A stretch of 53,714 nucleotides of DNA, the filler included, from Jimgerdemannia flammicorona (taxonomy: Eukaryota): assembly GCA_003990765.1 (NCBI GenBank). It is 3 parts of 3 records of this genome, joined end to end, with 100 filler letters (N's around TTAATTAATTAA, not from the genome) between each part and the next. Parts side by side here need not be neighbours in the genome. Positions count along the whole stretch, not along the records: positions 1 to 17,844 come from RBNJ01002386.1; 2 more parts are not named here. One strand, written 5' to 3'. A program made the position numbers and the translations under genes. The stretch's first letter is position 1. Each line of letters starts with the position of its first letter. The notes beneath the pieces were generated by a model. That model saw only the letters and a program-made list of their open reading frames with translations, was not told the DNA's origin and did not search any database. Shown in pieces: positions 108-45,569 of the stretch.

Positions 108-1378
108 CTCTACAAATACAGCTGGTTTCATTTTATTTCTCTTTTATAGTTGTAATAGATAATAATAATAAAATAATAATAATAAATGATAATAACAAGT
201 AAAAATTATAATGTGTGCCTAAATGGCACGAGCAACTGTCTAAAAGTGGCCGGATGAAGCATTTCACATTGTGAGCAAAATGATCGCACGATCATGTCTT
301 TATTGAAAATAGACGAAGTCGGTCGCCTCACAAATTAAACTAACAATGACCTTGTGCATCCGACTTGGAAGGAATTTTTTTAATACCGAAATTAGGAAGA
401 TGTGCAAATCAACAATATCTGAATAGTGATAATAATGCTGTAATAAATTTATATAATTAGTGGAATGGGGATTTTTTTTCATTATTATTATTATAAAAAA
501 GAGAGATTTACTTGGATATGGTGAGAAGATTCAAAGCAAAAATTTGTAAGGAGGCAATTGGTCCTTCCTTCAATCAGGCCAGTTACGTGTGATGGGTTTT
601 TTGTTTAATTTTATGAGGCCAGAATGGGCTCAGTGGGTTTATGTGCGTGGTGGCCCGAGGAACTTTGTTTGATAGACCCCCGCCGGCGAGGTTGCAGAGA
701 AGCACGTTGAAATTTTCTAGAGCGCGAAGCCTTTTATAGCGCAAAATAAAATTTATTTTTATCCGCACATAAAATCGATTGCCCATTATCATTCAGTATT
801 GCTTTCCGAAAGGAATACATGCATAATCCCTTGTATTAATGCGCAAACCCATTGGACTTATTTATTATATCTGGAAACGGGTAGCTTGAGAAGGATCCTT
901 GCCAAACTCATCGACCACGTTTTTCCCGTTGTCACGAAAACCTTCACCTCACACCTCTGCCTGGGTACGTTCTCCGTTATTTTCCAGAGGATCTCACTGT
1001 GCCACAACAGATCTGTCTCAGAGCTGCCCGCGGAGATCGAGGTAGACTTCGAGGTTCATTGGCTGTGGGATGGTGATGATTTCAGTAATATGCACTGCAC
1101 CCGGGAGGTATTTGGTCAGGAGGCACGGATACGTCTTTATATAACATTGCAAGTCTCCTCCTGTTGGACCTCGATCTGAGCATGTGTCCGGGTGTGGAGA
1201 GGAGGAAGACGGAAGAGCGGTAAGTATTGCATCCGTTATACTCTGTTTCGCATCCAGACGAGCCACAAACCTACAATCACGCGAGCCACATTCACACCAC
1301 CAACCCCCACTTCCACCCAGTCCGCAACCCACACAACCTGCAAACCAACGCACCTTAACGTTACTGAATGGAGATGAC

Positions 1379-1598
1379 CTAGAATAGACCGGTTTCGCCC
1401 TTGCTTAAGGGGCTCATCAGTTGGTTTACAGCAACCAAGACCGGCATAAGGAACCGGTCAAAAGTAAAGTTAGTAGGTGATTTGGATTTCGAAGATTATA
1501 CAATATTCACCACGTTGATTTGATATGAAATACTTATCTGCATGGAGATATTTATCAGCTATAGAAGGAAGGTATGAGGAGTCGGAACCCCTACATAC
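1379..1598 (-). other. Putative spliceosomal intron hosting the hammerhead ribozyme
   Basis: Minus-strand donor GTATGT at 1598 (alternative GTATTG at 1643), branch point TACTAAC at 1475-1469, acceptor TTCTAG ending at 1379. Followed by a 25-nt candidate exon (1378-1354) and another donor-like GTGCGT at 1353. No transcript evidence. Confidence 0.5.
1388..1445 (-). ncRNA. Type III hammerhead ribozyme
   Basis: Minus strand reads GCCGGUC UUGGUU gcugua AACCAA CUGAUGA GCCCCUU aagc AAGGGC GAAA CCGGU. Both core boxes (CUGAUGA, GAAA) are intact. Stem I is 6 bp (1438-1433/1426-1421), stem II is GCCC(c)UU/AAGGGC, stem III is GCCGGU/ACCGGU. The GUC triplet predicts cleavage between 1439 and 1438. Confidence 0.9.
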
Positions 1599-1823
1599 AA
1601 CATTCGTTCCCCAAATGGTTCGAGTCTCACACAAGGACAATACCTGAGGTAACCGCCCACAGCAATGTGGCCACAGGCGATCATGCGTCTACCCCACCAG
1701 AGGTGAAACTAACATGCTCCATAAACTGCGGGCCTGATACAACATTATAACCCGGTGCTGGCTCGAGCAGGGAAATCGGCTGCAAGCGAAAAAATCTTTA
1801 TTTTGAACTGAGAAAAAAAAAAG

Positions 1824-1871
1824 TGACGTCACCCAATTGTCATGTCGTCACCCAATTGTCATGTCGTCACC
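1824..1871. repeat. 19-bp tandem repeat (CGTCACCCAATTGTCATGT x2.4) starting in a TGACGTCA (CRE/bZIP-type) palindrome; possible promoter element
   Basis: Units at 1827-1845 and 1846-1864 plus a partial; TGACGTCA at 1824-1831. Confidence 0.6.
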
Positions 1872-2287
1872 ACCAAGAGAGATCACCGGTGAATGGTTTG
1901 CAGGAATGTCTTGGAAGCTATGTGTTATGAGGGGAAACTGAGGCCGACGGGAGCCCAGTTGAGGTGCGGTGTAGACATTACTCAGCCACTGCACATAGAG
2001 CTATACATGGCTGCCAAATTCCATCATCATTATAAAAATAAAAATAAAAAAAAATCATATCTGACCCAATTTGCATCATCCCTCTTCCCGGACCTCGGGA
2101 TGACAATCATCCACCTCAGCGCCTTCCTCATTCTCACACCAATGGTCTTCCTCCCAGCCCGAAACCTCAGCTACACAAGCCTCATCAGTATTATTGACTT
2201 GATTCTCACCTTTCACCAGTATCATTCAGGTGACACAAGACTCAGACAACACTTTTCTCAATGTTTTTGGTGACAGATGACATCAAC

Positions 2288-4203
2288 ATGGATAGCAATG
2301 ATCAATCTGGTGAGCGTGCTGGCCAGGGGGGCAGTGATGCCTTTGGCTGGCAATAGGTAGAGAGGAGGAGAGATGGTTTGGGGATGCTGGGGGCCTTGAT
2401 GGCTGACTGAGGCACTGGTGGTGGAGGGAGGGATAGCTTGAGGCAGCGAGGAGGGGAGAGGTTGACCTTTGCTGACAAGGTCAAGATGGGGAGGATGGCC
2501 TTGGGTCTGGATGGCTGGCTGGGCCTAGGGAAGATATTAATGGCTACTACTAGAGGTTAAGAAGGAGTGCCCAGGGGAGCATCTGGTGGTAGGAGAGGGG
2601 GGGAGTAGGGGCTGGTAATGTGACTGTTGATGGGGCTGTGACTGAGGATCTGGATAAAAATCCAGATGTAACAGCAGTTGATGAATCAGGACAGAGGGTG
2701 GATATGAGGCCCAGAGACCTGGTAGATGGAGTGATGAGTATAGTATCAGTACTGTTACTCAAGAAATCAAGGTTGGAATTTGTCATCACAATGTGCTTCA
2801 GGGACTTGGCAGTAACTGTGAGGATGATCTTGGGACTGGTGACACAAGAGACAAAGGGGGTAGCATTAGTGAAGTTTTTGAAGAGAAAAGAAGAGGTCAA
2901 GGTAGGATTTGAGGAAGAGGAAGCATTGTTGGCTGCCATGAAGAAGGGGGTGACAGTGGGTGAAGTTGTGGTCCCTATGACCAGGTGCATATGCTGGGAC
3001 CCCCGAGTGATGCAGTTGATGATATTGGATCTTCCTACAGTATTGAGGGAGAGGGCCAGGGAATTGATTGTAGGGGCAGTCAAGGAGTATGGAGAGATTG
3101 TGGACATTGGGTTTAAGATCTGGGAAGGAACAAAGCTCTGGACTAGTGATATTGATATCCAGGTGAGGCTGGCTGGAAAGGAGAACATGAGAAAGACAAG
3201 GGATTGGCCAGCAACTCTGAAGTGGGAACCAGTAGAGTGCAAGGTCATGTGAGTGAGGGAGACTCTGGAAGAGGAGAAAGATTTGTTTGAGACTCTGGAG
3301 AACCTGGAAGAGGCAGTCGAGAGGAGGAGATTGGCTTGACAGAAATATGAAGCAAAGATGGTGGTGGAAGTAGTCGAGAGGAAGAGGACCAGAGTGGACA
3401 AGGTGACCTGGGAGAAGATGCAAGGGAGGAGAATCCAGAAGGAGCTACTGACGAAGTTGGAGAGCAGTGGGGCTGGCAGTGGTACAGGGGATAAGAGAGC
3501 AGGATTGCATATGAGTGACTGGATGGGGGGAAGTGAGATGGCCCAAGGTGGAGCCCAGAATAGACCAAGAGAGGAGGAGCAGAACAGTGTAGAGGTGGAT
3601 GCAGAGATGAGTGAAGGAGTCCAATCTCAGTATAGTGTCCCAGGGGGAGCAGGGGGTGAGGTGGAGTTACTGGATATCCCAGATGAGGAGTGGGATAAGT
3701 CGGTAAGAAGGAGCACTCTGGTGGACCTGGGGGTGGGGGATGGTCAGGTTGTCCAGAGTATGGTAGAGGCAGTAGATGAGAAGAAGTAGCTGTAGAAGAC
3801 TTTGGAAGAGGTGGCAGCAGAGGAGCTAGGGGGAGAGGACTTCCAGGTTATGAAGGAAAGGCATTAGGAGGAAATTCTTCATAGGGAGGAGGTGCCAAGG
3901 AAGGTTAGAAATGAGATTCTGGTAGTACTATTGGAATCAGTTAAATATCAGGTCGATGACCAGTGAGAGGAGGAACTTCAGAAGATTGCGAATGATAGGG
4001 TGGCTTACTTATAGGGATTGAGAAAGAGATTGGAGAAGTGGAGAGTGGTCTGCACAGACTATCAGATAGAGATGGAAGTGGTAGATGGGGTGGAATGTTA
4101 GGAAATCTTAGAGGCATTGGATGCTCAGACTGTAGTGGAGGGGGACTTAAAAGCAGAGCAGTGATTGGATCTGACTGGGGATGAGATGAGTATGGAATAC
4201 TAG
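2288..4203 (+). pseudogene. LINE ORF1 (nucleic-acid-binding, RRM-like), interrupted by stops
   Basis: Collinear with ORF1 of copy 2 (e.g. VMQLMILDLP...KEYGEIVDIG); several in-frame stops. Confidence 0.8.
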
Positions 4204-4234
4204 GCTGGGTTATCACATTCAAATATTATTCAAT

Positions 4235-7200
4235 ATGAATAGTATAACTAGAATATTCTCTTTGAATGTAAATGGGTTGAGGGGGGCAGCTCAGCAAAAG
4301 TTCATATTTGGTTGACTCAAGGGACTGGATGCAGATCTCTTTTTACTGCAGGACATATATTACGAGACAGAAGTAGACTTTCAGGATTGGACTAGGGAGT
4401 GGGGGGGAGTGGTGGTGTGGTTTGGGTGGATAGCTATCTTAGTGTGGAAGGAGATGGGGGATATTGGTGATAGGGAGTCAGTTGGTGTAGGGAGTATGGA
4501 AGAGACCTGGTTGGAGCCCTTTGATGGTTAAGTTATATTATTGCCTAGTAGAGAGGGGGGAGTGGGTGGACTGAATCAGGAATTTGCAAGAGGCTGGTAT
4601 CTTGGTTGAGGCTGAAATTGAATGCCTGGAGGGGGATTTCAATATAGTAAGAGATAATGTAGTAGACCAGACTGACAGTGGGAGAGAGATGAAGGACCAA
4701 AGTGGCGGATTGGATAGTTGGATGGAGATGGAGAGGTTGAGCTCTCTGGTAGACTTGGAGAGATAGTTCTGGGAGGATTATCGAATTTATACTCACTGGA
4801 TAACTGGCCTGAGTTCTAGAATTGACTGGATACTGATAGCAGAATACTGGGGAGTGGATGTCTGGACTATGCTGGAGGTGGTATAGTGCCCATGGTCTGA
4901 TTACTGGGGTCTGCTTGGGGGGGGGGAGGTTTGGGGGAAGTAGGGATGGGTCTGGACATTGGCAGCTCAATTCCTCTTTATTGGAGGATAGCAATTTATG
5001 GGCTGACTGAGAGACAGAGGTTGTTGGAAAAATTGATCAATGGTGGGAGCAGGGCCTGGCAATAGGAGATCATTGGAGAAGGCTGAAATCGAGTGCTCAG
5101 GGATATTGGAGAGAGGCAGGGAAAGGGAGGAGTGCTCAGCAGTGACAGAGAGTGTGTTGGGCCTTGTAGTGGCTGGGGACACTTCTGGAGAGATGGGCAG
5201 AAGTGCTAGAAGATAGAGAGGTGGTAGACTGGTATATTGCAAGGATTTAGAAGGAAGTCAGGGAACTTAAGGAGGTGCTACAATTGGAGGAAGAGGCTAA
5301 ATTAAAGGGGTTGGTAGCAAGGTTGAGGTGGTAAGGGTTGGAGGAAGAAGAGTGACCCACTCAGTTTTTATCATGGATATTATAAGTATAAAAAACTAAG
5401 CAGTGGTGGGATAGCATCTTAGATGAGAATGGAGAGATGGTGGTGGAGACTCCAGTGATTCTGGGATTGCTAAGGTCCTACTGAGAGCACCTATGGAGTG
5501 AGGAAGAAGGGGGTGGAGATGTCTTGGACATTGAATGGTAGTTGGAGAGTTGGCATCTGAACCCAGCAATGGGGCTAGGGGCTCTAGGGGACTGAGTGAG
5601 AGGGGAGGAGGTGTGCAAGGTCCTGGCTTCGACAAGTAAGGGGATGGTGCTGAGAGAGGATGGGCTTCCCTGGGATTTTTGGAAAAAGATGGCCAGATGT
5701 ATGATGAGGTTCTTCAGTCTGGAACTTGGATTGGGGGCCAGCATCTAGGGCTGGTCTCTTTGCTCTTTAAGGATAAGAGGAGAAAGGAAGATTGGAAGAA
5801 CTGGTGTCCGATCATACTCCTTGATATGGACCACAAGCTGGTTATGAAGGTCTTGGTGACTAGGCTGCAGGGGATTGCTCAGCAAGTGCTGGAAGTTGAG
5901 CAGAAAGGTTTTGTTAGTGGTCGGTTGATTCGAGATGAGATGGCCTGGGTTCATGAAGTGATTGAAGGGGCTCAGGCTGCTGGGGTTGATGGCTGACTGG
6001 TGTTTCTAGATCAGGAGAAGACATATGATAGAGTGCAGAGGATCTGGCTAGAAGGAGTGCTGAAGCAGGTGGGTGTTTCACTAGGGTTCTGGAGGTTATT
6101 AATCAGTCTTTTGGAGGACAGTCAGACAGACTTGGTGGTCAATAGATACAGGGGTGTCACCTTCCCTCTGGGTCATAGAGTACTGCAGGGGGATCCTTTG
6201 TCACCCATCTTGTATACCCTTTCCTTGGAGCCCCTATTGGATAGGATCCAGTGTCGAATTGGGGGTTTGGACATTCTAGGAATTAACTGGAAGGTGGGGG
6301 CCTTTGCAGATGATATGGTAGTTGGATTGGGTTCATTGGCAAATGTGGAAGAATTGTGGCAGACTGTGGAATGGTATGAGAGGGGCTCTGGTACTAGGCT
6401 CAATTGGCACAAATGTGAGACTATGATGTTGGGTGGAGGAATAGTTGATGGTGACATGATTGAGATGGTGGTGCTAGCAGGAGATCCCATTTGCTATCTG
6501 GAGATCTACTTCTCCATATATGGGTCTCTCCTTTCTCACACTTAGTGGGAACAGCAACCCCTAGTATGGGGAAATGAGCTTTTATAGTGGGGCAGTCAGC
6601 ACATTTCCTTGGCAGGAAGGGTGATGGTGCTGAATATATATTGGCTGTCAAAGTTGTGATATGTGGGGTATCATCTCGACTTCCCAGTGTGGATAGTCAG
6701 ATACCTTCTGAAGATAGCAAGGACATGGATCTGGGCTGAGCAGCAGAGTCAGATAGGATGAGAGGTGCTGACTCTACCTGTAGATAGTGGTGGACTGGGC
6801 TTGGTGGACTTCCCCAAACACCTTCATTGCTTATGAGTGTGGTGGCTGAAGAGGGTGAGTGAGTTACGGGGACAGGAGTGGGTACTGCTCATGCAAAGGG
6901 TGTGGGAGGCCTGGTATTTCCCCTGCAGTACATCTGGTGATCTGCTTGCAATGGTGGCCCTGGATGGGAGCGAGAGGATGTGATATAAGGGCTTTTGGTG
7001 GGGGGTGGTAGATGGTACTTGGAGAATTGATTTGCGATGACAGGGCAGTGAAAGTGAGGGAGATTGGGGACTGCAGATGTGGAGATGGGACAGGCTTCTG
7101 TTAGGTGGTACTTTGGTAGAGGACTTTCAGCTTAGCAATAGTATGGAGTGCTTGGGGGCTTAGGGGGGGACTGGTGGCCTATTGTGTAGTAGAGGGTGGG

Positions 7201-7810
7201 GATTAGCAAGGGGTGGAACTGGAATAGGCTTTGGCCTTAGAGCAAGCAGATGATGCAGTGGCTCCCTCCCAAGTTCTGAGTAGTGTGGTGACAGTTTCTA
7301 AGGCAAAATGTGATGTTGAACTTTTGGTCTGGGCACTTAGTGGCAGATAGACAGTATGAGTGTGAGGAATGTTTGGATGTTAGACAAGAAGGGGAAGTGA
7401 TTCAAATGCCTGAACATTGGTTTGGGAAATGTAACATTCTGGGGGTTTTTTGGCATCGTATTGCAGACAGGTTAGGACTATAAGCCCTGGTAGAAGGAGA
7501 AGGGAGGAGATAGAGAGAGCTCTACTGCAGGTTAGTGGAGGGGGTTGATGATGAATGGCTGACCCTGAGTTGGGCTCTGGCAATTTGGATTGGGCTTGTC
7601 AGACATTGGTTATATATATTTAAGAAGGGTTGGCAGATAGAGATTGGGGATAGGGTGGCATGGTGAGAATGGCTGTTATTGGATATTTTGAATAGCTAGT
7701 AGTGGGGGTGGGGACCTGGAGGGGGTAGATGTCAGAGACTGGTGAAGTATATGTGCTGAAAAAGTAGAGGGCAGGTCTGAGTGGTGGGTGACTAGGTTAT
7801 CTTCTAATAA
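4235..7810 (+). pseudogene. LINE ORF2 (APE endonuclease + reverse transcriptase), decayed; 3' end approximate
   Basis: NVNG, GDFN, SRIDW, KNWCPI, DQEKTYD, QGDPLSP and FADD motifs visible in fragments. Confidence 0.85.
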
Positions 7811-7918
7811 GGAGGGGTGGAGGGGGGTGAGGGGGATCCAAGAGATATTGGGTGAGGGGATGGGGGTAATATTGTATTATTAATGTAGATTGCAGTAATA
7901 AAGGGAAGTCCAAGTGAC

Positions 7919-7954
<36 letters not shown>

Positions 7955-8093
7955 CATCAGTATTATCAGTGTAGTAAACATTTCATTATCATAATGTATG
8001 ACAGACATCTAAGAATGAGAGTCCTGGGAGTCTGAGAGATCTTATAGTAGGTTTTTGAGGCTAAATATTGAGATATTGAATTTGCTGAGTGAG

Positions 8094-10589
8094 TTTTTTT
8101 TTTTTTTTTTTTTTTTAAACCAAGAGAGTATCTATAGACCAGCTTCTGAAATAGATAGATCAGAAAAATTAATACAATTATCTTTACTATAGAGTTATGA
8201 ATCTCTATATAAAGGAGATTTCATTCTCTCTATATAATTGTCAGTATATATATTCATACTTCTTTCTCCTTGTGTAGGATATCAATATTTTCCATCTGAC
8301 TGAAAAACTATTCTATTGAGTTTTGAACTAATAATGTCTCAATCTGTTGATATATAGTAAAAATAAAAATAAAAAACATTATTTTATTTCTTCTGACTCA
8401 CTTGGTTTATATTATATCATTATTAATCTTCTTCCTTTTTATTTATTTATTTTAATTATCAATTCTTTAAGAATTTTATCTATATATTATTATTATTATT
8501 ATTATTTTTTTTTTTTAACTAATTTAATCTAATTTTCTTTATACCTTCTCTCTGGTATAGGTTATACTATTTTTTCCACTATCTATAAAGATATGATAGA
8601 ACTAAAGTAGTATGTATATTGGTATAGTCAACTATTCTTATAGAATTACTTTCTTCTAATAACTATATTTATTATATTCAGATAATTAAAATATATATTT
8701 TCTGGTAATTGAGCTATTTGTGGAGTTTGATGGAAATAATAGTACTAATGATAGGATAGTACTAATATTTGTTGATAAATATATAATATATTTTATAATA
8801 AGTATCCAGATATATTATATTTAATATTACTATTATATAGAAGATAGATTTAGTATTTTAAATTATTAAATAATACTGTACTCCTATTTAAAATACTGTT
8901 AAATTATAATCTTCATATCTTTGATAATTACATCTCTCTCTACTTTAGTTATATAAAATATTATCAATATCTCTAGTTATGATCTCTTCTGAATAAGCTT
9001 ACTATCTAGCTTATTACTATCAATCTTATCATTTAATATACTCTTACTCTTAACTTTATAAATCTCATCTAAAAGCTTAGTCTACTCAAATGGAATAGCT
9101 TTAAGAACTGATATAACTCTGATTATAGAAAGTATATCCTGATATATAGCTTAGGGAGATATATTATCAGTATACTTATCATCAGTATTACAATTATATT
9201 TCTTAGTTTCAATAGAGTTATAGTGAGTTTGATTATAGTTTAGAGTTAGAGTTAGGTATGTTCTTTTCTTTTTTTATCACAGTTATCTTTTTACTTACTT
9301 ATTACCTATACTTGTTCAGTCACTTTATCCCTACTACTTAGTAACTCTTTAAACAGATCTTATTATCTCATATTTACTAATAATAGTTAGTACTATATAG
9401 AGCTTTCTCCTATATCATATTATGTCAAATTGAGTAAACTTTGAGACCAATTTAATCTTGATACAGTGAGATAGATTATAGAAATTAGTAAAGAATTTTA
9501 GATTATAGTAAACTTTATATAAATTTTATTTCTAAATACTACTTATTTGTAATTATATCTTAGAAGAAATTTAGGAATAAAAAAAAATCTCATTAGGAAT
9601 TTTTCTATTTTCTGAAATATTGACTATATATTTTGATATCAATGATAGTTATAAGTATATATCTAATAATATTATATATTGAACTAAATAGATTTTTAAC
9701 AATAATTAGCTATAATACTACTATTTCAATCATAATAGAGACTATTTGTAATGTATTATATATTAGTATATATTAAATAGAAATATCAATAATGAGAGAT
9801 AGAAAAATAAATAATAGTAATTACTAAAATATAAAAGTATCAATATTTAATACAAAATTGAAATTTATAATATAAGATAGGTATCTCTTTTTTTTTAAGA
9901 TAATTAAGAGTATAATGTTATATATCTATATCAAGAAGAGAAAGTTGAGTTAATTATACTATTTTTATAGAAAATAGAAACTTGCCAATAATATTTATTA
10001 AGTATCAGATTACTGACAGTTATATGGAAGTGCTCTAAGTATATAATGAGAAATATATATTATATATTCTCTCTATATAATTGACTTCTCTCTCCCCTTT
10101 CACTCTCTCTTTAGCATTTTTCATATTTCTATTTAAATTTTATAATTGAGATCTATATCACCCTACTGAATCTACTCTCTCTAGTTTTATAGAAATTATT
10201 AGTAAAATTTTATTTTATAATTACAATAAGCTTATTTGTATATTTTTGAGTGGAGATAGTTTTCTATTTTAGAATCAAGACTAGTAATACTATTTCATTA
10301 TATTTATAAGCTTAGAGTATAATCTGAGATTATTAAGTAAAATAAGAATAGTCTTGTCTAATAAAATTAACTAATATATAAAGATAAAATCACATAATAT
10401 CAGTAAGAATACAATATTACTATTTTTTATATTAACCTTTTGTCAACCTTTAACTACTCTCCTCTTACTATATAATATATCATTAGATCTATTCAGAGAT
10501 CTCTCTTAAGACCTATAACCTTCTTTTAGAGCTTATAGAACTTATACTCAGTTATATTAAGTTTGATAATAATTATGATCACAATATAT
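8094..10589. other. Extremely AT/TpA-rich decayed sequence, probably an old hypermutated transposon relic; begins with a poly(T) tract
   Basis: Essentially no CpG, abundant TA dinucleotides, no ORF; poly(T) at 8094-8116. No family could be assigned. Confidence 0.4.
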
Positions 10590-11609
10590 TGTAGCATTGG
10601 GTTTGTATCCCGAGTTGCTTCTCTTGCATGGCTCAATGTGCCACTTGGTGAAGCGCGTGATGGATGTGAGTGTGTTCGCAATGGTTATGGGTCGATAGTC
10701 ACATGACAGGTCATTCAGTTCATATGATAATTAATAGCAGGAGTTCATTCGACGATGGCTCAATTGTTTAGTGGAAAAAGGTGTTGTTGCTAACAGAGAG
10801 TGGTTACTTGGGTGTGCTGGCAGCGATAAACTTAGTAGAATATGCAGTTGATTTGAAGCGGGTGACGGTCTTGACTTTAAGCGGTCAATTAAAGCGGTCC
10901 ATGGCGCAGTAGGTCAGGAAAACGGAGGTTGACAGCTCACTCGTCCATCTTGACTTGTTAACTTGAAAGGTTCCTGGCGATTGTTTGGGTCTTTGGCAGT
11001 GGATCAGTCTTTGGGTGGTCTAGTATACTTTGGCTGGGTATCCTTGGGTTTCTGGGTCTTGAATCTTGAATGGGCAGTCCAAATGCGCGGTCCGAATGGC
11101 AGTCTGAATGGTGGCAGTCGGGTAACATTTTCTTTCCATGGCAAGAGAAAATTCTTTAACTCAAACTTCTGAGTAATCTGTTGCTCTAGGTTGTTATCTT
11201 GTTCTCAGAATTTTCCGGTCTCTTGGAGGCAGTGGTTTCTTTGTAAACTAGAACTGACTGAGGTTTTATTCACTCTAAGGATATGGGTTATTTATACAAG
11301 TTTGCTAGCTATGGGTGGGGGTGCGACTAAGGCTAAGGTATACTATGTTGTGGCGAACTTCACTATGCTATTGGCTTGCATGATGTGAGGTGCAGGCTAT
11401 TGTTTACTACAGATTGGGTTGTAGGGGATAGCAACGCTGGATTCGGATAAGCAGACAGGAGTGCTGATTGTTGCCAGAAATGGTTGTGGAGGGTGGCAAT
11501 GCTGAATTCAGACCTGCTGACAAAATGCTGAAAATGGTAGTACTGGGTAGCAATGTTGGAAATGGACTTGCTGACAAAAGCTGGGTTCTCACGGCTGATG
11601 GGCGGTACT

Positions 11610-12911
11610 CTAGAGGGAATAGTACCCTTCGACCATGGCAGACAATTCTTGCTGGGTTGTGATTTCTTCTTCATCATATCTCTCTTCAAAGGGGAGAAGT
11701 GCCAGCCAAGAGGTGAGGAGGTAGAAAAGTGGCCAGTCATCTTCAACAACATTTTCCAATCCCTGAACTGCTTGAATGCAGACAGAGGACTGGTAAACTC
11801 TCTGTTGCTCCTCTTCTTCTGAAGACTCATCAGTTTCAGTATCAGAGGGGGTTTCTTCAGGGGCAGGGTCTTGGAGTTCTTGGGCCTCCTCTTCAAAGAC
11901 AGAAACTTCTTGGGCTTCTTCTTGATTCAGTTCCCAAATGATGAGGTGTGAATTGTGGCTGACAGGGTAGTGGGTGGTTGGGGTAGCTCCAATGGGTGCT
12001 TCTATAGTAATGGGTGGTCCTTCAAATATCTCCATAAGACTCATTAGGTGGCCTTGATGGTTGTCTCGGAGTGGGGTGGTGTGGAAACCTGGTTGAGTAG
12101 GTTCAGTTTGTTGGCTTCCTATGGCAACACGGTTGCTGCCAGTAGAGTTGGCTACTTCAGATTCTATCCAGTCAGCATCTTCAGTTGAAAGGCGGGAGAG
12201 GCTGCCAGCCATTACTCCTTACAAGTGTGCTATGGCCCAGGAAATATGGCAGAAGATTTGGTGGACATGGAGGGCTCTCTTGATTAGCTGGTTGGTGGTT
12301 AACATTTCGGCAATGAGGTCTTCCTGGTCACCTTCTTGAGTCTCATTGTGAAGGCGGTGTCTGATTTCGTAGTCATGCCAGAGGGTCATTCGTTTGGTAG
12401 TGTCTTTGAGCTATTGGGTCATTATATACCAGTAGTTGATAAAGTGTCCAAGGTCCTCAGTGTAGAAGTTCAAGTATGTGGAAGTATCTGGGCACCAGAT
12501 GGCCTTCTTGATAGCTTCAAAGATCAGAGTCTTTGGGCCAGGCAAAGGGGTAGAGTGGCGGGAGGTCTGGTTGGTTCAGCGAATGGGAGGCATTGTGTGG
12601 TGGATACTTGGTTCTTTGGTGCCGATCCCTGAGGCGGAGTATGGTTCCTTAAATAATGTAGTCTTCATTTAGGCTTGGATCATCTTGTCTTCTTTTGGGA
12701 TGATCACCTAATGGGTCAGGCTGTCTATTTGATTGTCATGCCATTATGTCGTCTGATCTTAGCAGTCACTAGTACTCCATTGTTAATTGTATATGTCACA
12801 TCTGCCCCTTGCAAAATTAGAGCCATCCTCAGTGGTGAGGGTTACATAGGGTTGGGTGGTCTTAACTCCAGGGACGAGCAAAATACTGATGCATTTGTGA
12901 GGACTGGCCAT
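11610..12911 (-). pseudogene. Gypsy extra ORF (ORF3) of unknown function, copy A
   Basis: One continuous frame from ATG 12911 to 11610 with only point stops; matches 24816-26059 (LSTEDADWIESEV...). Confidence 0.6.
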
Positions 12912-13125
12912 CCTTGTCTAGGGCGAGGGCTCCCATAGTCGCAGCTGGGGGTTCGAACCCATTGGAAATAGTATTACTTATAATCTGAGGCAATTTCTTA
13001 GTAACAATGTCTGTCACGTGGATGGGCTTGAGTCTGGTTCTAATGTTGTTGGCTTTCTTGAGTTCTGAGTGAAACGTCCGTCGTATCTCCAATGGAGACA
13101 ATACAGACAGAGTGAACAGGATTGT

Positions 13126-13734
13126 TCAAATATGTTTTACTTCTCTTGAGTAGTAGAGTCTTACGCAGTTGTGGTGTATCTTGGTCTTGAGTATAACTCC
13201 ATCCAAGGTCTTGAGTTGATAAGTGTGGTTTGAGAATACTTGGTGTATGAGATAGGGGCCTTCCCATTTTGGTTCAAGCTTAGCACTCTAATTTCCTTCT
13301 ATGATGGTACGGTACACCAGAACCTTTTGTCCAATAAGCAGGGATTCAAGGTTGGCTTTGTGGTCATAGTACCTCTTTTATTGTTCTTGTGCCTTGGCAA
13401 TAAATCCTCGTGCTTGCTGGCATATGTCGTGTAACCGAGTGATCTCTTCTGTGACTCATTTTGACAGATCTAGCTAGACTGGTTCAGTAGGATCTTGTGC
13501 TTCTCGGCCATACACCAAATAGAAGGGGGTCTGTTGGGTAGCGGTTGCCTTAGAGGTACAGATGCTGAACAGAATTACTGGTAGATAGATATCCCAGTTT
13601 AGTTGATCTCCAGTTCTACTGAGGCCTCGCTTGATGGTCTGGTTCATTCATTCAGTGAGTCCATTTGCCTGTGGGTGATAGGCTGTTGTTGGTCATAGCT
13701 TGATCTTGAAGTTGCTTGCAAAGGTCTTCATGGC
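13126..13734 (-). pseudogene. Gypsy integrase C-terminal fragment (catalytic E region, GPY/F module)
   Basis: TAYHPQANGLTE, WDIYL and KLEPKWEGPY motifs on the minus strand. Confidence 0.85.
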
Positions 13735-23325: not shown

Positions 23326-24601
23326 AACCAACAAGAAGGGAAGGAGCCCCTATAAGAGAAGGCTGCCTCCCGCTCACCCAAATGAACCAAGAATTGTGCC
23401 TTACCCTCACCTAAAGTCTGCACCATAGAAGCTTCAAGAAAGGAATCTAACCAGCCCACAAGTTGTTTATCCAAAGGAATTTCAAGAAATTCCAAGAAGG
23501 CGATGGCGAACTTTGGAGAATAGAAGGAGAGCAGTACACCCGAGTTCCAAGAGAGGAAGAAATATTGAAGATCCTGACAACAAATTATAACCAAAATGCA
23601 CACCAAGGAATTGGCGCCACAATCGCAAGAATCAAGAAGCGATACTGGTGGCCCAAGATGAGAAAACAAATTTCAATGCACATTCAACAATGTGATCCTG
23701 CCAAAGATACTGACAAAAGCCTACTGACAGAGCACCATTAATACTGATCGCAGCATCAGCTGGAGCCTTTCAAAGACTGGAAATAGACATTATTGGACCC
23801 CTATCAGTAACCAGCTGAGGAAGACGCTACATCCTCACTATCGAAGACTACCTGACAAAATGGCCTGAAGCCTTTGCCATTGAGACTGCCGATGCCCAGA
23901 CAATCATTGGGATCCTGTATGATGAAATTTTTAGCCACCATGGTGTGCCCAAGGAAATCATTACAGACCAAGGCTGAGAATTCATCAACCAAGCCATGAA
24001 GACCTTTGCGAGTAACTTCAAGATCAAGCTATGACCAACAACAGCCTACCACCTACAGGCAAATAGACTCACTGAACGAATGAACCAGACCATCAAGCGA
24101 GGTCTCAGTAGAACTGGAGATCAACTAAACTGGGATATCTATCTACTGGCAATTCTGTTCAGCATCCGTACCTCTAAGGCAACTACTACCCAACAGACCC
24201 CCTTTGATTTAGTGTATGGCTGAGAAGCACAAGATCCTACTGAACCAGTCTAGCTAGATCTGTCAAAACGAGTCACAGAAGAGATCACCCAGTTACACAA
24301 CGTACACCAGTAAGCATGAGGATTTATTGCCAAGACACAAGAACGACAAAAGAGGTACTATGACTGCAAAGCCAACCTCGAACCCCTGCTCATTGGACAA
24401 AAGGTTCTGGTGTACTGTACCATCATAGAAGGAAATTGGAGTGTCAAGCTTGAACCAAAATGGGAAGGCCCCTATCTCATACACCAAGTATTCTCGAACC
24501 ACACTTATCAACTCAAGACCTTGGATGGAGTTATACTCAAGACCAAGATACACCGCAACTGCATAAGACTCTACTACTCAAGAGAAGTAAAACACATTTG
24601 A
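23322..24601 (+). pseudogene. Gypsy integrase (zinc-binding, DDE core, GPY/F module), frameshifted
   Basis: AHQG...RYWWPKM...C; IDIIGPL; DYLTKWPEA; IITDQG; ERMNQTIK; PKWEGPY. Confidence 0.9.
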
Positions 24602-24815
24602 ACAATCCTGTTCACTCTGTCTGTGTCATCTCCACCAGAGATACGATGGATGTTTCACTCAGAACTCAAGAAAGCCAACAACATTGGAACCAGACTCAAG
24701 CCCATCTACATGACAGACATTGTTACTAAGAAATTGCCTTGGATTACAAGAAATACTATTTCCGATGGGTTTGAACCCCCAGCCGCGACTATGGGAACCC
24801 TCGCCCTAGACAAGG

Positions 24816-26059
24816 ATGGCCAGTTCTCACAAATGTGCTGACATTCTGCTCATCCCTGGAGTTAAGACCACCCAACTCTGTGTAACCCTCACCGCCGAGG
24901 ACGGCTCTAATTTTGCAAGAGGCAGATGTGATGTACGCAATTGACAATGGAGTACCGGTGACTGCTAAGATCAGATGACATAATGGCATGACAATCGAAT
25001 AGACAGCCTGACCCATTAGGTGATCACTCCAAAAGGAGTAATGATAATCCAAGCCAAAAGGAAGACTACGTTATTTAAAGAACCATACTCTGCCTCAGGA
25101 ATCAGCACCAAAGAACAAGTACTCACCACACAATGCCTCCTATCTGCCACCCCAACCAGACCTCCCACTGCTCTTCCCCGTTGCCTGGCCCAAAGACTCT
25201 AATCCTTGAAGCTATCAAGAAGGCTATTTGGCGCCCAGACACCTCTGAACATCTGAACTTCTATACTGAGGATCTTGGACACTTTATCAATTACCGGTAC
25301 ATAATGACCCAATAGCTCAAAGATACCACTGAATGAATGACCCTCTGGTATGATTACGAAATTGGACACCACCTTCATAATGAAACCCAAGAAGGTGACT
25401 AGGAAGACCTCATTGCCGAAATGTTAACCACCAGCCGGCTAATCAAGAGAGCCCTCCGTGTCTACCAAATCTTCCGCCATATTCCCTGGGCTATAGCACA
25501 CTTACAAGAAGTGACTGCTGGAAGTCTTGCCCATCTCTCAACTGAAGATGCAGACTGGATAGAATCAGAAGTAGCCGACTCTATTGGTAGTAACCGAGTC
25601 GCTGTAGGAAGCCAACAAACTGAGCCCACTCAACCAGGTATTCACACCACTCCACTCCAAGACAACCATCAAGGTCACCTAATGAGTCTCATGGAAATCT
25701 TTGATGGACCACCCATTACCATCACAACACCTGTTGGAGCAACCCCAACTACTCACCACCCTGTCAGCTACAATTCGCACCTCATTGTTTGTGAACCAAA
25801 TCAAGAAGTCCCAGAAGTCCCTACCAACACAGAAACTGAAAGACCTGAGGAAGAAGAAGAGGAGGAACAAAGAATCTACCAATCCTCTGTCCACCTTCAA
25901 GCAGTCCAAGAGTTGGAGAATGTCATTGAAGATGATGGGCCACAATTCTACCCCCTCACCTCCTGGCCGGTGCTCCCACTCTTTGAAGAACAGGATGAAG
26001 AAGTCACAACCCAGCAAGATGATTGGATCACTGACAAAGGGTACTTTACCATTCAGTGA
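24816..26059 (+). pseudogene. Gypsy extra ORF (ORF3) of unknown function, copy B
   Basis: Frame 25133-26059 (KRALRVYQIF...LSTEDADWIE..., acidic tail); can be extended upstream to ATG 24816 across a 1-nt deletion by comparison with copy A. Confidence 0.6.
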
Positions 26060-26302
26060 TCCAACATCCATTTCCTCAGTCTGGTCAGCCAACGTTTGTC
26101 AGCAAGTCAGCAATATCTGTTTTCAGCGATATCACCCACAACAACTGAATCTGGCACTGGTACTCGCCTTATCTCAATTCAGTGATCCAATGTCCATTTT
26201 CTCAGTCTGGTCAGCCAATGTTTGTCAGCAAGTCAGCAACACCCATTTTCAGCGATACCACCCACAACATCCATATCCAGCACTAGCACTCATCTTATCC
26301 CA
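26051..26302 (+). repeat. 126-bp tandem duplication in the Gypsy 3' region
   Basis: ATTCAGTGATCCAA...CTTATC(T/C)CAAT units starting at 26051 and 26177. Confidence 0.8.
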
Positions 26303-27162
26303 ATCTGGCACAAACAACTGTCACACCCATATTCAGCAATTAAACCACCACAACGTAGTATACCTTAGCCCCCCCCCATAGCTAGCAAATTTGTATAAAT
26401 AACCCTATATCTTAGAGTGAATAAACCTCAGTCAGTTTGTATTTAAAAAGTAAAAGGATTACAGAGAAACCTCACTGCCTCCAAGAGACCGGATAAATTC
26501 TGAGAACAAGATAACTAGAGCAATGATTGCTTGAGGTTTGAGTTAAAGAATTTTCTCTTGTCACAGAAAACATTTGAGATTCGCTGCTAAGGAAAGCCAC
26601 ACGAAAAGCCATTCAGTTCAGTTTAAATACCCACTGCTGCTAAGGAAAGCCACACGAAAAGCCGTTCAGTTCAGTTTAAAGATCTGCCGCTAAAGGAAAG
26701 CTGCACAAAAACCACCAATCACTGCCGAGATCCCACTAGCCCAACCATTGTGCATTTGACCCAACTGTCATGCATTCAACCTGACTGCTGTGCATTCGAC
26801 CCAACCGCCATGCATTCAGAACCAACTGCTATTTGAGGTTCAAGACTGCGCATTTGAGACCCACCATTCAAGTGTTAAGACCCCAGCCAAGGAACCTAAG
26901 GATACTTAGCTTAGGAAAGCCAGCACCATCATCATTCACCAACAAGTCAGATGAATGAGTCCCCTTTTACCCACTGTGCCATAAACCATGTACATTTAAG
27001 AAGTAATTTACCCCGAGCCTCCATCATACGAATCGGACAAACCGATCACATGACCATCGACCCGCAACCATCGCAAATGCGCTCAGTCATATACTGCGTG
27101 CTCCACCAAGTGGCACATTGAGCCGTGCTTGAAGCAACGAGAGATACAAACCATACACCACA
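26303..27162 (+). repeat. 3' LTR region of Gypsy copy B (5' boundary not resolved)
   Basis: TATAAAT (~26394) and AATAAA (~26420) core, internal short tandem repeats (26583-26700, 26750-26880), CA terminus shared with copy A. No clear PPT identified. Confidence 0.6.
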
Positions 27163-29526
27163 ATAGATATAGTACTTAGTATCTTACTGAGTCAGAATGT
27201 AGTTATATAGTACAAGTATATACTGATATATCAAGGGATTGTCTAACTGCTGATTCAGTAGTCACATTATATAAGGCCAATCTAACTATACTAATGAATG
27301 CTAAGCTATCTATAGATTTAGATATTATCTAGATAGTCTTCAATAAGATCACTATTGATGACATCATCTCTGATAAAGTAGTCATCTAGAAAGAGGGGTT
27401 CTTGGATATTATCTCTCTGTTTATTTATATAATAATAGGTTGAGATCATGTTACTATTCCTATAAGATGGCATTATCTGTCTCATATGCTGGATAGAGTA
27501 TTAGTGGATAAAGAAGGGGTGCATTATCTTTACTTTTACTGGATTGCTATCTGTATACCTTTTATAGGTAATGATACTATGAGTTACAGGGTTGCAGTAG
27601 GCTAGTGGCTATAGTCTATTTCATTTATACTCAGGAGGTGGGGTTGTTGGTTCAATCTCAAGGTTTGTCTAAAGGTATACATATATTGTATTCTCCAGTC
27701 TCTTCATTATAATTGAAGTAATCAGACAGAATGTATATTAGTATTCATACTAGTGTTTATTATTTCAATAGGTCTTATAGATGGTTATAAATTATTATAA
27801 ATTCATTGGCAAGGTTGGCAGGGTGATCAGGGCTGGCAGAGATCCTTGGCTGGAGGTCATATCAGTATCAAAGAGATTATTATTTTCTGCTTCATCATTA
27901 TTGAACTGGATTATATTATAGATATCCTTCATGATATGGTCATTAGAGTATAGGAAAGGTCTGTCTATAGTCTAAATATACTTGATATACTTGTGGTTAA
28001 GTTCTTGTACTATATCATTGATTTGACCATAATGTAGAGTAGCAACCATTTCAATAGTGGTAATTCAGAGGTAGGAAATAAAGGTGCTATACTTATAAAA
28101 GAGTTCTCACTATTTATGAGTAATGAGTTTCTGGTGTTGAGATATTTAAGTAATATCCATATCATGGTGGTGTTCAATCATATCTTCTAGAAGTAGTCAA
28201 TCTAGTAGTAGCTTGAGATTTGTCCAATTTAGTGGGCTTCACTGAGTATGTTCAGGGCATTCTATAGGGCTTTCATAAAGTAGAGAGGTGTCAGACTATA
28301 TATATTCATGAGGGGCAGGAGAGGTATAGCTTAGTTAACAATAGTATTCCAAATATAAGTATAGATATAGTTGTAGATCTCAGTGATCATGGTTGTATAT
28401 ATGTTCAAGAGTTGTGGTTGTTTGTTTGATTTGGTATAGTTCTTTGTTTTAATGTATCTGAGTACTCAGTATATATATATTCAGTTCTGATTATTAAGGT
28501 TCTGTTTGTATAAATCTTATATTCTGTAACTTCAGTTTGACTCAGCTTCATGATCTTACATATAATTTCCAGATTTGTTCAGAGGAAAACATACCATTTC
28601 AGTGGCTTGGAGATTGTGCACTTATACCAGGTATTTCTACTAGAGTTTGAGCCAATATTCTGACTATGGAAATTGAAGATACTAACTCAATCCATATATA
28701 AAGCTATTCTAAGAAGTAGTATTTCTCAAATAGAGAGATTGTGAATTGTTTGGTATATGTACTTTTGGTAATATTGATCAATTTGATGATATGAGAGTCC
28801 TCTTTATTTCAATATTAAGATAGAATTTAATAAAGAAAGTCTATATCAATATAAGAGACTTTAGTTCAGAGATTCTCACTATTACATGTAATACAATATC
28901 AACTTCAATGTTATTTGCTAAAAAATGAAAAATACATACAAGTTGGCAAGATTGAATCATTTGTATTCAAAACATTCCACATTGACTTCTGATATACCCC
29001 TAGAATTCTGCTAAGGAAAGACTATATTTTGCTTCAAAGACTTAACTAGAGAATTGGTATCCTCAATACTAATGATATTGTCTGAAAAAATATACAATAT
29101 GGCATGCAATTTGTATAGATTGGTTTGCTGATATGTATAGCTCAATATATTACTAAATAACTATATACTCTCTCTTATTTATTTCCAACTACATTTCTGC
29201 CTCAATGTCTATTTTAACTGCTGTTTGATTTTTTTTGCTGAAGTTTACATCACAATGAAGTTTGCATCACATTAGAGTTCATGTATCTCAAGTCATTGGT
29301 CCCATGACTGGTTGTTCGGAATAGTGAGATAGTTGAAGAATATTTGTGTGGTTTCTGGTAATTTTTTTCATATTCTCTATATTTCTTGGCAGTCTGGCAT
29401 ATCCTAGGGTCTTTTATCTGATTTCTGGGGTTTGTGGCAGTCATTAACTGACTGACTTACATCTTGAGTTCTAGGTTCTTGTATCTGATTTTGTAGTGGT
29501 GTTTCTTATCTGACTTGTATTAATAC
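27163..29526 (-). mobile_element. Strongly decayed element, possibly a different LINE RT relic
   Basis: Weak RT-like remnants in the expected order on the minus strand (TSHGTNDL ~ SPGPDG; KPIYTNC ~ RPISLLN; ALYMD ~ YADD; YIWN); TpA-rich and CpG-poor. Confidence 0.35.
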
Positions 29527-30772: not shown

Positions 30773-30843
30773 ATATATTATTCTTACATTTCCTGATGAT
30801 TATTTTCTGAGTTCTTTATATTTCCTAGCAATGTTCTGATCAG

Positions 30844-35758: not shown

Positions 35759-35779
35759 TTTTTTTTTTTTTTTTTTTTT

Positions 35780-35879
35780 NNNNNNNNNNNNNNNNNNNNN
35801 NNNNNNNNNNNNNNNNNNNNNNNTTAATTAATTAANNNNNNNNNNNNNNNNNNNNNNNNNNNNNNNNNNNNNNNNNNNN
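35780..35879. other. Assembly gap with synthetic TTAATTAATTAA spacer
   Basis: N-run, TTAATTAATTAA (35824-35835), N-run. Confidence 0.95.
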
Positions 35880-41661: not shown

Positions 41662-42319
41662 ATTAATAGAATACTACTATAGCCCTCAAGATTACTAGTG
41701 TTGCACAATGAGCTATAAAAAGACAATAGTGCACTACCAAGCTACTGATCATAGAAGAATCCTTTGATAGTATCCAGAGTATTATCCAGATACACTTGTT
41801 ACAAATCTCATATTTTAAGATCTACTAGAACTAGACTGAGTTTTAAGAATACTTCAAAATAGGATAGCTACTAAACTTATAGTCAGAGATAGAAAAAGAA
41901 GACTAAATTGGAGAATGCTAGCTCTTTTATGCTCATATCATAATCACTAAGTGAGTTAATAAGTTGTTCAAAGATAATGAGTCAGCTCTTGCCCATTTTT
42001 AAGAAATAGTCCCAAAAGACTTTGGATATATTAAGAGATACTACTGGAAGAATATAATGACACAAATCACCTATTCAGAAGAAAGTTGTAGTAGTTGATC
42101 TGAATTAGTAATATAAATTAGAAGAATAGATATTTGATCATAGTATCTAAATCTAATTCTCAAATATAGTATAATCTTATAAATAGCAGTCATATTTTAC
42201 AAATATTAAAGTTTTTACAAATATTAAACTCTTCACAAATGTTGAGATTTAATAGATATTAAGGATTAATACTTATAAAAAATAACTCATATAAAATATA
42301 GTTATAACTTAACAATCTT

Positions 42320-42540
42320 ATAACTAGCAAACTTGTATAAATATTCTCAGTATCTAGAGTAAATAAAACCTCAGATTGAAATAGTTCAAAGCAAAGAGAA
42401 AGTAAAGGAACTAGTAAGTCTATAGACAGATATACTTCAAACTCACCCACCCCTATATCTCAAGGACTCTGTAGAGTCAAAGAAGATCAAGTTTTTAAGA
42501 TACAGAAATCTGATATACTTACTTAGTTAATGTTATACTT
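42320..42540 (+). repeat. Decayed LTR-like relic (boundaries approximate)
   Basis: CTAGCAAACTTGTATAAAT...AGAGTAAATAAAACCTCAG matches the Gypsy LTR core at ~11265-11310 (minus) and ~26382-26431. Confidence 0.5.
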
Positions 42541-42588
42541 TTGTTAAAGTAACTGAGAGCTTAAGCCAAACTATATAGTAGTCCCAAC

Positions 42589-42980
42589 TAGTACTCTTAA
42601 TGAATTGAATTGAATCAAATTTGACCTAAATTTAATTTGATTTGATTTAAATTAAATCAAAGGTCTAATTCAATTCAAGATTCAATTCAAACTCTATTTT
42701 TTGAAATATAATAACTTGACAAAAATATAAATTTAATAATCTTTAGCTTATTAGATTCCTTTATAAGAGAAATCTAATAAGCTAAAGATTATTAAATTTG
42801 GATATATTTTCATCAAGTTATTATATTTTGAAAAATAGAGTTTAAATTGGACCCTCAATTTTATTTGAATTTGATTTGATTTAAACTTAATTTGAATTAA
42901 AAAAATCCCTAATTTGGTTCAATTTGAATAACTTTCAATTCAATTTAATTTGAATTGATTTAATTTATTTAGAAGCACTA
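42589..42980. mobile_element. Non-autonomous fold-back MITE, probably hAT-type
   Basis: Imperfect terminal inverted repeats (TAGTACTCTTAATGAATTGAATT / AATTGATTTAATTTATTTAGAAGCACTA), long internal near-perfect palindrome centred ~42765, 8-bp flanks GTCCCAAC/GCTCCAAT differing only by C/T transitions. Confidence 0.75.

Positions 42981-45533: not shown

Positions 45534-45569
<36 letters not shown>

Follow-up and report, generated by a model that had tools for sequence, protein, structure and literature searches.

Introduction

Hammerhead ribozymes are already known from repeats of eukaryotic genomes, where they are of type I in animals and in the yeast Yarrowia and of type III in the plant retrozymes with long terminal repeats (LTRs), reportedly described by Cervera et al. 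in 2016. The parts of the published sources on which we draw present the plant elements as non-autonomous LTR retroelements, each of whose LTRs contains a type III hammerhead (PMC7761336), and the non-LTR retrozymes of animals as tandem repeats of 170-400 bp with type I hammerheads (PMC7761336) that are linked to Penelope-like elements (bioRxiv 10.64898/2026.07.22.740005). Here we analyze a type III hammerhead encoded on the minus strand, from position 1445 to 1388, of a 53,714-nucleotide stretch of DNA (the window), which joins parts of three records of the genome assembly of the fungus Jimgerdemannia flammicorona (GCA_003990765.1).

The first fungal hammerheads came from interspersed repeats of Yarrowia lipolytica (Perreault et al. 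2011, PMC3088659), where the ribozyme is of type I with a stem I-loop II pseudoknot (PMC10187678); the former source also describes base pairing of stem I with loop II as a tertiary contact and places hammerheads on interspersed repeats of Aedes, Nematostella and Xenopus (PMC3088659). The Sm-alpha repeats of Schistosoma carry a hammerhead as well (PMC3088659, PMC6155905), and domesticated examples include a discontinuous type III ribozyme in Clec2 3' untranslated regions and intronic ribozymes of amniotes (PMC6155905, PMC3088659). Type I is reported from animal repeats and type III from plants and circular RNA agents, with type III elements also in bacteria and insects (PMC7761336, PMC6155905). 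In the main texts of the openly accessible literature that we searched, we found no mention of hammerheads in Mucoromycota and no genomic fungal retrozyme, the search turning up viroid-like RNAs and ambiviruses; the letters of the module described below were found in no searched paper text. The locus would add a family of type III hammerheads with an apparent kissing-loop contact, in a Mucoromycota-like fungus, to the known repeat-borne hammerheads.

The minus strand encodes a sequence-intact type III hammerhead

When pairs were checked letter by letter, the minus strand from 1445 to 1388 contained all of the hammerhead core nucleotides and three helices (Table 1). The core includes CUGAUGA, GAA, the A15.1-U16.1 pair (U1440-A1393) and a non-G nucleotide, C1439, at the cleavage site, and the topology is that of type III: helices I and II each end in a loop, and helix III is open. 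A preliminary description of this DNA had placed a canonical, apparently intact type III hammerhead at 1388-1445 on the minus strand with a predicted 5' end at 1438, and both the placement and the classification proved correct. The minimum-energy fold of the 66 nt from 1450 to 1385 is exactly the hammerhead three-helix junction, at -19.0 kcal/mol. The simple pattern CTGATGA-N8-30-CGAAA occurs once in the window against 0.08 occurrences expected, and 8 of 100 shuffles contain a match. With the full descriptor (core, NUH site, helix I of at least 4 bp, helix II of at least 3 bp and helix III of at least 4 bp, both strands searched), the 1388-1445 site is the sole match in the window and none of 300 dinucleotide shuffles matches. 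Judged by its letters and their pairing, the minus strand encodes a genuine, sequence-intact type III hammerhead, which would be expected to be catalytically active.

The gathering score of Rfam is reached nowhere in the window. RF00008, in a 501-nt search, scores 24.1 bits against a gathering threshold of 48.5 (E = 0.0085), and the match is local, covering model positions 7-48 of 54 and leaving out helix III; the Rfam type III search proposed in the preliminary description thus finds the site, but below threshold and without helix III. Since relatives also fall below gathering (RF00008 matches 5 of 11 loci scanned, at 27.5-37.9 bits, and none of the 11 at gathering), the low score reflects the RF00008 model and not the motif: the curated model under-scores the lineage. 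With the whole lineage below the Rfam threshold, routine annotation will miss such ribozymes. A covariance model built for the lineage, R1, scores 62.7 bits at 1381-1455, its sole match in the window, a score that is no evidence by itself since the window row is part of the model.

An accidental motif in non-coding DNA would be in keeping with the below-gathering Rfam score and with a fold energy that is unexceptional for 1450 to 1385 (z = -1.09; 24 of 200 shuffles fold at least as well). It is contradicted by the failure of any of 300 shuffles to match even a looser descriptor, by the identity of about 95%, fold-free positions included, to modules in unrelated contexts, by a compensatory change in the loop contact and by dozens of variants in sequencing runs, all of which are described below. 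Chance resemblance is refuted for practical purposes, and its remaining probability is negligible.

Table 1. Features of the window discussed in the text, with positions counted along the whole window.
Feature	Position	Strand	Details
Type III hammerhead ribozyme, complete	1388..1445	-	core, helices, fold, descriptor scan
Helix III	1445-1440 with 1388-1393	-	G·U, C-G, C-G, G-C, G-C, U-A; 5 bp and one G·U; open
Cleavage triplet GUC, last letter C1439	cut between 1439 and 1438	-	
Helix I	1438-1433 with 1421-1426	-	6 Watson-Crick bp
Loop 1, 6 nt	1432-1427	-	closes helix I
CUGAUGA	1420-1414	-	core
Helix II	1413-1410 with 1397-1400	-	4 bp, G-C beside core
Loop 2, 9 nt	1409-1401	-	closes helix II
GAAA	1396-1393	-	core
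Loop 1 triplet GCU	1430..1432	-	proposed kissing partner of 1405-1403; pairing over 50 sequences
Loop 2 triplet AGC	1403..1405	-	proposed kissing partner of 1432-1430; pairing over 50 sequences
5' arm of 7-bp hairpin with 1445-1439	1453..1459	-	competing fold, buries helix III 5' strand and cleavage site
Upstream body of repeat unit	1446..1569	-	at least 85% with X1-X3 contigs; weaker likeness to ~1600, 5' limit uncertain
12-nt direct repeat, copy 1	1538..1549	-	11/12 identical to 1364-1375
12-nt direct repeat, copy 2	1364..1375	-	partner of 1538-1549
Putative exon tail, ribozyme 3' end to 5' splice site AAG|GTGCGT	1354..1387	-	
Putative intron, 178 nt	1176..1353	-	starts GTGCGT, pyrimidine-rich 3' part, ends CAG
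Putative second exon	1000..1175	-	X1 and X2 contigs; followed as far as 1000, where the placed stretch began
LINE-type element, five decayed copies	2206-7950, 13750-~18400, ~30800-35760, ~36680-41680, 47860-53714	+, +, +, -, +	Exo_endo_phos and RVT_1 open reading frames

The ribozyme is probably one copy of an abundant retrozyme-like repeat

Four public sequencing runs match positions 1150-1900, and their contigs were placed on 1000-2100. Two of the runs, X1 and X2, come from two studies of one organism closely related to the source of the window. The data are assembled contigs and not reads, their RNA nature is only guessed and DNA is possible; contigs drop rare variants, and depth is a sum over all contigs that gives no copy number. 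Positions 1777-2100 in X1 and most of 1592-2100 in X2 are uncovered. A total of 86 contigs from X1 and 92 from X2 lie on the stretch, and about 90 variants stack on 1388-1569; in the identity classes of at least 99%, 95-99%, 90-95% and below 90% there are 35, 20, 18 and 13 contigs from X1 and 29, 21, 24 and 18 from X2. Summed word depth over 1370-1443 is 8,215-10,797 in X1 and 7,381-9,482 in X2, compared with 64-309 and 1-66, respectively, over 1148-1369 on the downstream side, such that the ribozyme has roughly 100 times the depth of its flank. On the upstream side, depth is 4,670 (X1) or 1,632 (X2) at 1444-1480, about 1,000 at 1481-1554 and 556 by 1591.

The contigs also part company with the window at defined places. 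Among the 16 of 79 loose ends listed, those before 1388/1390, the 3' end of the ribozyme, comprise 4, 6 and 7 contigs, and further ones lie near 1569, where contigs continue into differing sequences. The other two runs, soil metagenomes from two further studies, contain relatives of 1366-1561 with other flanks. Helix variants that reach at least a tenth of the depth all keep pairing (1423 G-U, 1425 U-G and 1443 U-G); at that level, the core, helix II and the kissing triplets are without any listed variant among the X1 and X2 contigs. Dozens of distinct variants with different flanks, as read from these contigs, do not fit a single-copy host gene. The preliminary description had suggested that this may be a lone, host-retained ribozyme and had named many dispersed copies as the observation that would count against it; such copies are largely what the X1 and X2 contigs show, leaving the shared sequence at 1388/1390 or about 1569 for different sequences, and that reading is not supported in the form given. 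In some variants, consensus strings of the loose ends gave a by-eye lead to long complementary flanks that would make helix III rod-like.

Relatives of the module are also widespread in metagenomes. A degenerate pattern of the module finds at least 120 metagenome loci, and one 27-mer of the module occurs 59 times among the matches listed. The exact 29-mer has no match in either metagenome contigs or viral contigs, and the same 29-mer with two wildcard positions finds one locus in genome contigs and none in viral contigs. One group of metagenomes contains a dispersed element of about 430 nt, in which the copies resemble one another from about 380-400 nt before CUGAUGA to 12-15 nt past the ribozyme; a type III hammerhead is 3'-terminal and the 5' end resembles a tRNA T-arm. 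Copies include L003, L019, L021, L030, L034, L041, L043, L058, L069, L070, L072 and L077 plus at least about 50 more, the contigs are eukaryote-like, and helix III covaries among subfamilies. By eye, 10 full-length metagenome copies show no consistent target duplication. The body of this element was considered as a homologue of the window repeat and rejected: its profile matches only the window ribozyme (1429-1390, E = 1.4e-06), and the two element bodies are therefore taken to be unrelated.

To ask how pairing behaves across the lineage, 49 distinct type III copies (of 54) were aligned with the window. L026 and L103, with tandem or type I topology, and L080, L095 and L101, with an upstream part that is not homologous, were left out. 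Standard pairs fill 82.9% of cells, as against 80.1 +/- 0.4 in shuffles (none of 500 reaches the observed value) and at most 48.6% with slid partners. Seven pairs show changes on both sides, and helix III accounts for four of these; being invariant in the alignment, helix II gives no covariation information. As far as aligned sequences can tell, the ribozyme helices covary in the lineage.

Because the module is abundant with many flanks and recurs in both tandem and dispersed units, we conclude that the locus is probably one copy of an abundant retrozyme-like, non-autonomous, ribozyme-bearing repeat and not a lone host invention. The repeat would be about 180-200 nt long, extending roughly from 1569 or 1590 to 1388, and the ribozyme would occupy its 3' end; the repeat may have spread by retro-mobility.

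Several results weigh against this conclusion, as do the fold energy and Rfam score given above and the folds of longer segments given below. Features diagnostic of a mobility mechanism were not found. The window contains one ribozyme copy in 53.7 kb, by sensitive BLASTN of 1-2300 against the window and by the R1 model, without a second LTR or a tandem copy, and position 1388 is not followed by poly(A). The sole flanking direct repeat, a 12-mer (Table 1), is weak, with a local alignment score of 20 that 30 of 1000 shuffles reach, and was discarded as a target-site duplication or unit overlap on that ground. The minus strand lacks an RNA polymerase III (Pol III) A or B box by comparison with the consensus sequences, the only B-box-like site, at 1588, having two mismatches. 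In the X1 and X2 data, the flanks at 1000-1383 and 1596-1743 are also covered, at depths of 27-780, and may be partly repeated. Moreover, the multi-copy evidence consists of contigs from runs only guessed to be RNA, and high depth could represent expression of a few loci. The high summed depth in X1 and X2 would agree with abundant unit-length RNAs, linear and circular, like those of animal non-LTR retrozymes, but does not demonstrate them; no head-to-tail joints are listed among the X1 and X2 contigs, which cannot reveal RNA ends.

Near-identical modules occur in tandem units

Three loci outside the window carry the module in a different setting. L103 has two module copies 530 nt apart, with 95.2% identity to the window over 42 nt; L121 has two copies 394 nt apart, with 94.9% identity over 39 nt; and the module of L026 is 94.9% identical to the window over 39 nt. 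The identity covers helix II, loop 2 and the palindromic letters of helix III, and some of the shared letters are free of the fold. In L103 and L026, the ten letters after the cleavage site match or resemble those of the window, and helix I is open by hundreds of nucleotides, a type I reading, whereas in the window a 6-nt loop joins its strands. RF00008 reads L121 as type III. Outside the module, the L103, L026 and L121 units show no relationship with each other or with the window. These comparisons lead us to infer that one ribozyme cassette was re-used or permuted on different repeat backbones. Near-identical modules in tandem units of other organisms would point to a single cassette moving, or being re-permuted, among backbones.

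L121 is a 523-nt contig deposited with a Demequina (actinobacterium) assembly, in which a 394-nt unit is present 1.33 times. The contig represents a tandem repeat or else a circle whose assembled ends overlap, and it is probably foreign to the bacterial assembly. In the 1540-1600 stretch of L026, a 57-kb metagenome contig, a tRNA-like T-arm motif comes at most 40 nt after the cleavage site of the module, and ARAGORN reports no tRNA.

The locus resembles known mobile classes and fits none of the layouts tested

We compared the window with the layouts of the described mobile classes. Sensitive BLASTN of 1-2300 finds no second copy of 1300-1700, and the layout of two LTRs with a type III hammerhead in each, 600-1000 bp apart, is absent from the window, where a solo LTR is possible. 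Head-to-tail units of 170-400 bp with type I hammerheads are likewise absent, there being no tandem copy in the window and the topology being type III. A tRNA-derived short interspersed element (SINE) was rejected on the grounds that the ribozyme strand has no Pol III boxes, that there is no tRNA and that no poly(A) follows 1388; no tRNA was found in the window or in 12 related loci. The Penelope-type GIY-YIG domain is present in none of the 78 open reading frames (ORFs) of at least 110 amino acids, with the window ending 1,387 nt downstream of the ribozyme, and the reverse transcriptase (RT) matches in the window belong to elements of the long interspersed element (LINE) type, with Exo_endo_phos, and of the LTR type, with zinc knuckle and protease. 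On these points the preliminary description, which had seen a single copy, no flanking LTR pair and no Penelope ORF in the window, was borne out, the single copy by BLASTN, the core pattern and the R1 model alike. The locus works like a retrozyme or a SINE-borne hammerhead, yet it fits none of the structural class definitions that were tested.

Plant LTR retrozymes share with the window family the type III topology with closed helices I and II, a multi-copy and non-coding nature and transcription, and solo copies exist among them. They differ in having an LTR of about 350 bp within a unit of 600-1000 nt, whereas the window repeat measures about 180-200 nt without a second LTR or ribozyme in the window, and in making a 4-bp duplication, none of which is seen at the window locus; the window host is a fungus and not a plant. 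The window repeat is in a range of unit sizes similar to that of animal non-LTR retrozymes, its depth in RNA-like runs is high, and its module is about 95% identical to those of L103 (units of 530 nt) and L121 (394 nt), which are tandem. However, the animal elements are of type I and tandem, while the window ribozyme is of type III, with helix I closed and helix III open, is single, and lacks a Penelope-type ORF.

The Yarrowia repeats provide a precedent for a hammerhead on a multi-copy fungal repeat and for a tertiary contact by base pairing, but their ribozyme is of type I and their host a yeast, in contrast to the type III ribozyme of a Mucoromycota-like fungus in the window. Sm-alpha repeats are, like the window family, short, dispersed, non-coding, SINE-like repeats with an active-looking hammerhead, which in their case is of type I rather than type III; Sm-alpha has Pol III promoter boxes, and none were found on the ribozyme strand of the window. 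Domesticated hammerheads lie inside a host Pol II transcript, the fate of which cutting would alter, as the window copy apparently does. They are single-copy and conserved at orthologous loci, whereas the window module comes from an abundant family that is multi-copy in X1 and X2.

A loop contact may assist the ribozyme and an upstream hairpin may compete with it

The proposed 3-bp contact between loop 1 and loop 2 (Table 1) forms standard pairs in 97.3% of cells across 50 sequences. One of its pairs is U-A in the window and G-C in 45 relatives, and the only both-sided change is that in the row of the window itself. Resting on this single compensating row, the sequence comparison is suggestive of a kissing contact kept by compensatory change.

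Folding of longer segments gives a less favorable picture. In a 106-nt model, a hairpin that lies upstream and shares its 3' arm with the ribozyme has a pair probability of 0.55, compared with 0.02 for helix III, and the minimum-energy folds of both 106 and 217 nt lack the ribozyme junction. The fold constrained to contain the ribozyme has -25.7 kcal/mol against a minimum of -28.1, a gap of 2.4 kcal/mol (106 nt). Because the folding model takes no account of the loop-loop contact or Mg2+, we regard the modeled hairpin as a caution on cutting efficiency and as a possible gate, and do not take it as evidence of inactivity. During transcription, the 7-bp hairpin 1459-1453/1445-1439 would form first and compete for the helix III strand, and therefore cutting at the window copy may be slow or gated.

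The hairpin also bears on whether the locus is a silent relic, an intact-looking repeat copy that is inactive where it now lies and plays no part at the locus. Such a relic would agree with the model's preference for the hairpin over helix III, with contigs that span the cleavage site uncut (for example 1390-1473 and 1402-1463) and with a single copy that has no partner ribozyme, from which no unit-length RNA could be released. The small energy gap, from a model blind to loop contact and Mg2+, and the intactness of every core position argue otherwise, and the spanning contigs cannot show RNA ends and may be DNA. We consider a silent relic unlikely.

The ribozyme apparently lies in the first exon of a spliced transcript

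One X1 contig, at a depth of 148.5, skips an intron downstream of the ribozyme (Table 1), and a second contig of the same variant, at a depth of 76.7, retains it. The alignment tool placed the joint from 1137 to 1354 with 38 letters between; realigned by eye, these letters correspond to 1139-1175, making 1176-1353 the skipped part. They differ from 1139-1175 by one mismatch, a 3-nt gap and a small insertion after 1137-1138 that is shared with the second contig. The intron has GT..AG ends on the ribozyme strand, and the ribozyme is 35 nt upstream. The coexistence of spliced and unspliced contigs of one variant suggests that the X1 data are RNA and that splicing removes an intron from a minus-strand transcript, starting 35 nt downstream of the ribozyme. 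The ribozyme copy apparently sits in the first exon of this transcript, which appears to be non-coding: the joined exons have no ORF longer than 41 amino acids. Among the contigs shown, none connects the ribozyme with the spliced exon, and the flank contig that is listed stops at 1383.

A coding reading was considered for the weak likeness of 38 amino acids at 1030-1143 (minus strand) to the HEAT-repeat domain of cohesin SCC3/SA (Pfam, 20.9 bits with a cut-off of 25; residues 570-605 of human SA-1, PDB E = 0.42). It was rejected: there is no ORF above 41 amino acids, the likeness is out of frame with the splice, and 15 neighboring ORFs give no support. The stretch may be a pseudo-exon or a chance match.

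On transcription of the minus strand, the core would be assembled by the three helices together with the loop contact and the RNA would cut itself after C1439, giving a 5' piece that ends in a 2',3'-cyclic phosphate and a 3' piece that begins with the 5'-OH of U1438. The body of the ribozyme and the 5' splice site, 35 nt beyond it, would stay on the 3' piece together with the downstream exon, and cutting could thereby affect the host transcript. Ribozyme, competing hairpin and splice site lie within 110 nt, a compact test case for the effect of a repeat-borne ribozyme on a host transcript.

This arrangement would also suit an exapted host ribozyme that, whatever its origin, is now retained as a switch within the first exon of the non-coding transcript: cleavage would detach the capped 5' part, leaving an RNA with a 5'-OH end, and the upstream hairpin would set the frequency of cleavage. 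In keeping with such a switch, the ribozyme shares its strand with the GT..AG intron, which starts 35 nt downstream, X1 contains contigs both with and without the intron, and a flank variant of the related organism (about 90% identical) also looks expressed. Core, helices and kissing triplets are intact, CpG is retained and the competing hairpin is of a ribozyme-gating kind. However, a young insertion would look just as intact, and the abundance of the family accounts for intactness without selection at the locus. The link from ribozyme to spliced exon is in no contig shown, with the flank contig ending at 1383, and the transcript has neither an ORF above 41 amino acids nor a known function. 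Exaptation at this locus appears quite unlikely to us.

A wider scenario would combine several of these elements. Early-diverging, Endogonales-like fungi would carry their own branch of retrozymes, short LTR-less units of about 180-400 nt whose type III kissing-loop hammerhead is a circular permutation of the type I module of the tandem units, and which give rise to RNAs that are abundant and possibly circular. The window copy would have become part of the first exon of a spliced non-coding RNA, with its cleavage gated by the hairpin. We offer this scenario as conceivable but doubtful.

Two further features lie upstream, in the minus-strand sense. At 1813-1862 (plus strand), a 19-nt tandem duplication adjoins the palindromic TGACGTCA, about 70-120 nt upstream of the end of run coverage at about 1743, and could be a promoter element of the minus-strand transcript. 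At 1617-1627 (plus strand), opposite the ribozyme strand, there is a B-box-like or tRNA T-arm-like motif with one mismatch to the consensus; ARAGORN finds no tRNA.

Genomic context of the window

The ratio of observed to expected CpG is 0.98 and 0.73 in 1-2000, as against 0.06-0.15 in 2001-8000, and CpG depletion is confined to transposon copies. The CpG values of 1-2000 agree with the CpG-retaining surroundings noted in the preliminary description, and the restriction of CpG loss to transposons, like the relatives in soil metagenomes, suits a soil fungus as the host. Its further statement that the ribozyme lies outside transposable elements holds for the neighborhood, which retains CpG and looks non-repeated in the window, but not for the ribozyme module, which itself probably belongs to a repeat family.

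The five LINE-type copies (Table 1) have a CpG observed/expected ratio of about 0.0-0.15 and an unusually strong sense-strand skew of G over C, 0.4-0.5. The copy at 2206-7950 has poly(A) at 7922-7950, and copy 2 is the least decayed, with CpG of 0.4-0.64 and ORFs of 545-547 amino acids. An LTR-type element occupies about 18.4-23 kb (plus strand), with zinc knuckle, aspartyl protease, a dUTPase-like stretch and RT at about 18.8-22.8 kb. Long inverted repeats at 11265-13734 and 23993-26425, whose arms are 85-93% complementary, have a LINE copy and the LTR-type element between them. Regions at 8000-10000, 28000-29000 and 42000-43000, between transposon copies, are AT-rich, with a G+C content of 0.20-0.31 and no CpG, and a run of N lies at about 35780-35880.

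The region at 43-48 kb has a CpG observed/expected ratio of 0.86-1.43. It includes, at 45040-46534 (minus strand), a Macro-domain ORF (45680-46492) followed by a long GCT/GTT-type repeat, Gln/Ser-rich when read on the minus strand; a Protein Atlas search with this ORF gave no usable match. The ORF runs into a region 69% identical over 99 amino acids (E = 4e-41) to a WWE-domain protein of Jimgerdemannia flammicorona (Endogonales), the one protein match that indicates a probably Endogonales-like (Mucoromycota) host; the other matches of the ORF are bacterial Macro proteins only, at 32-44%.

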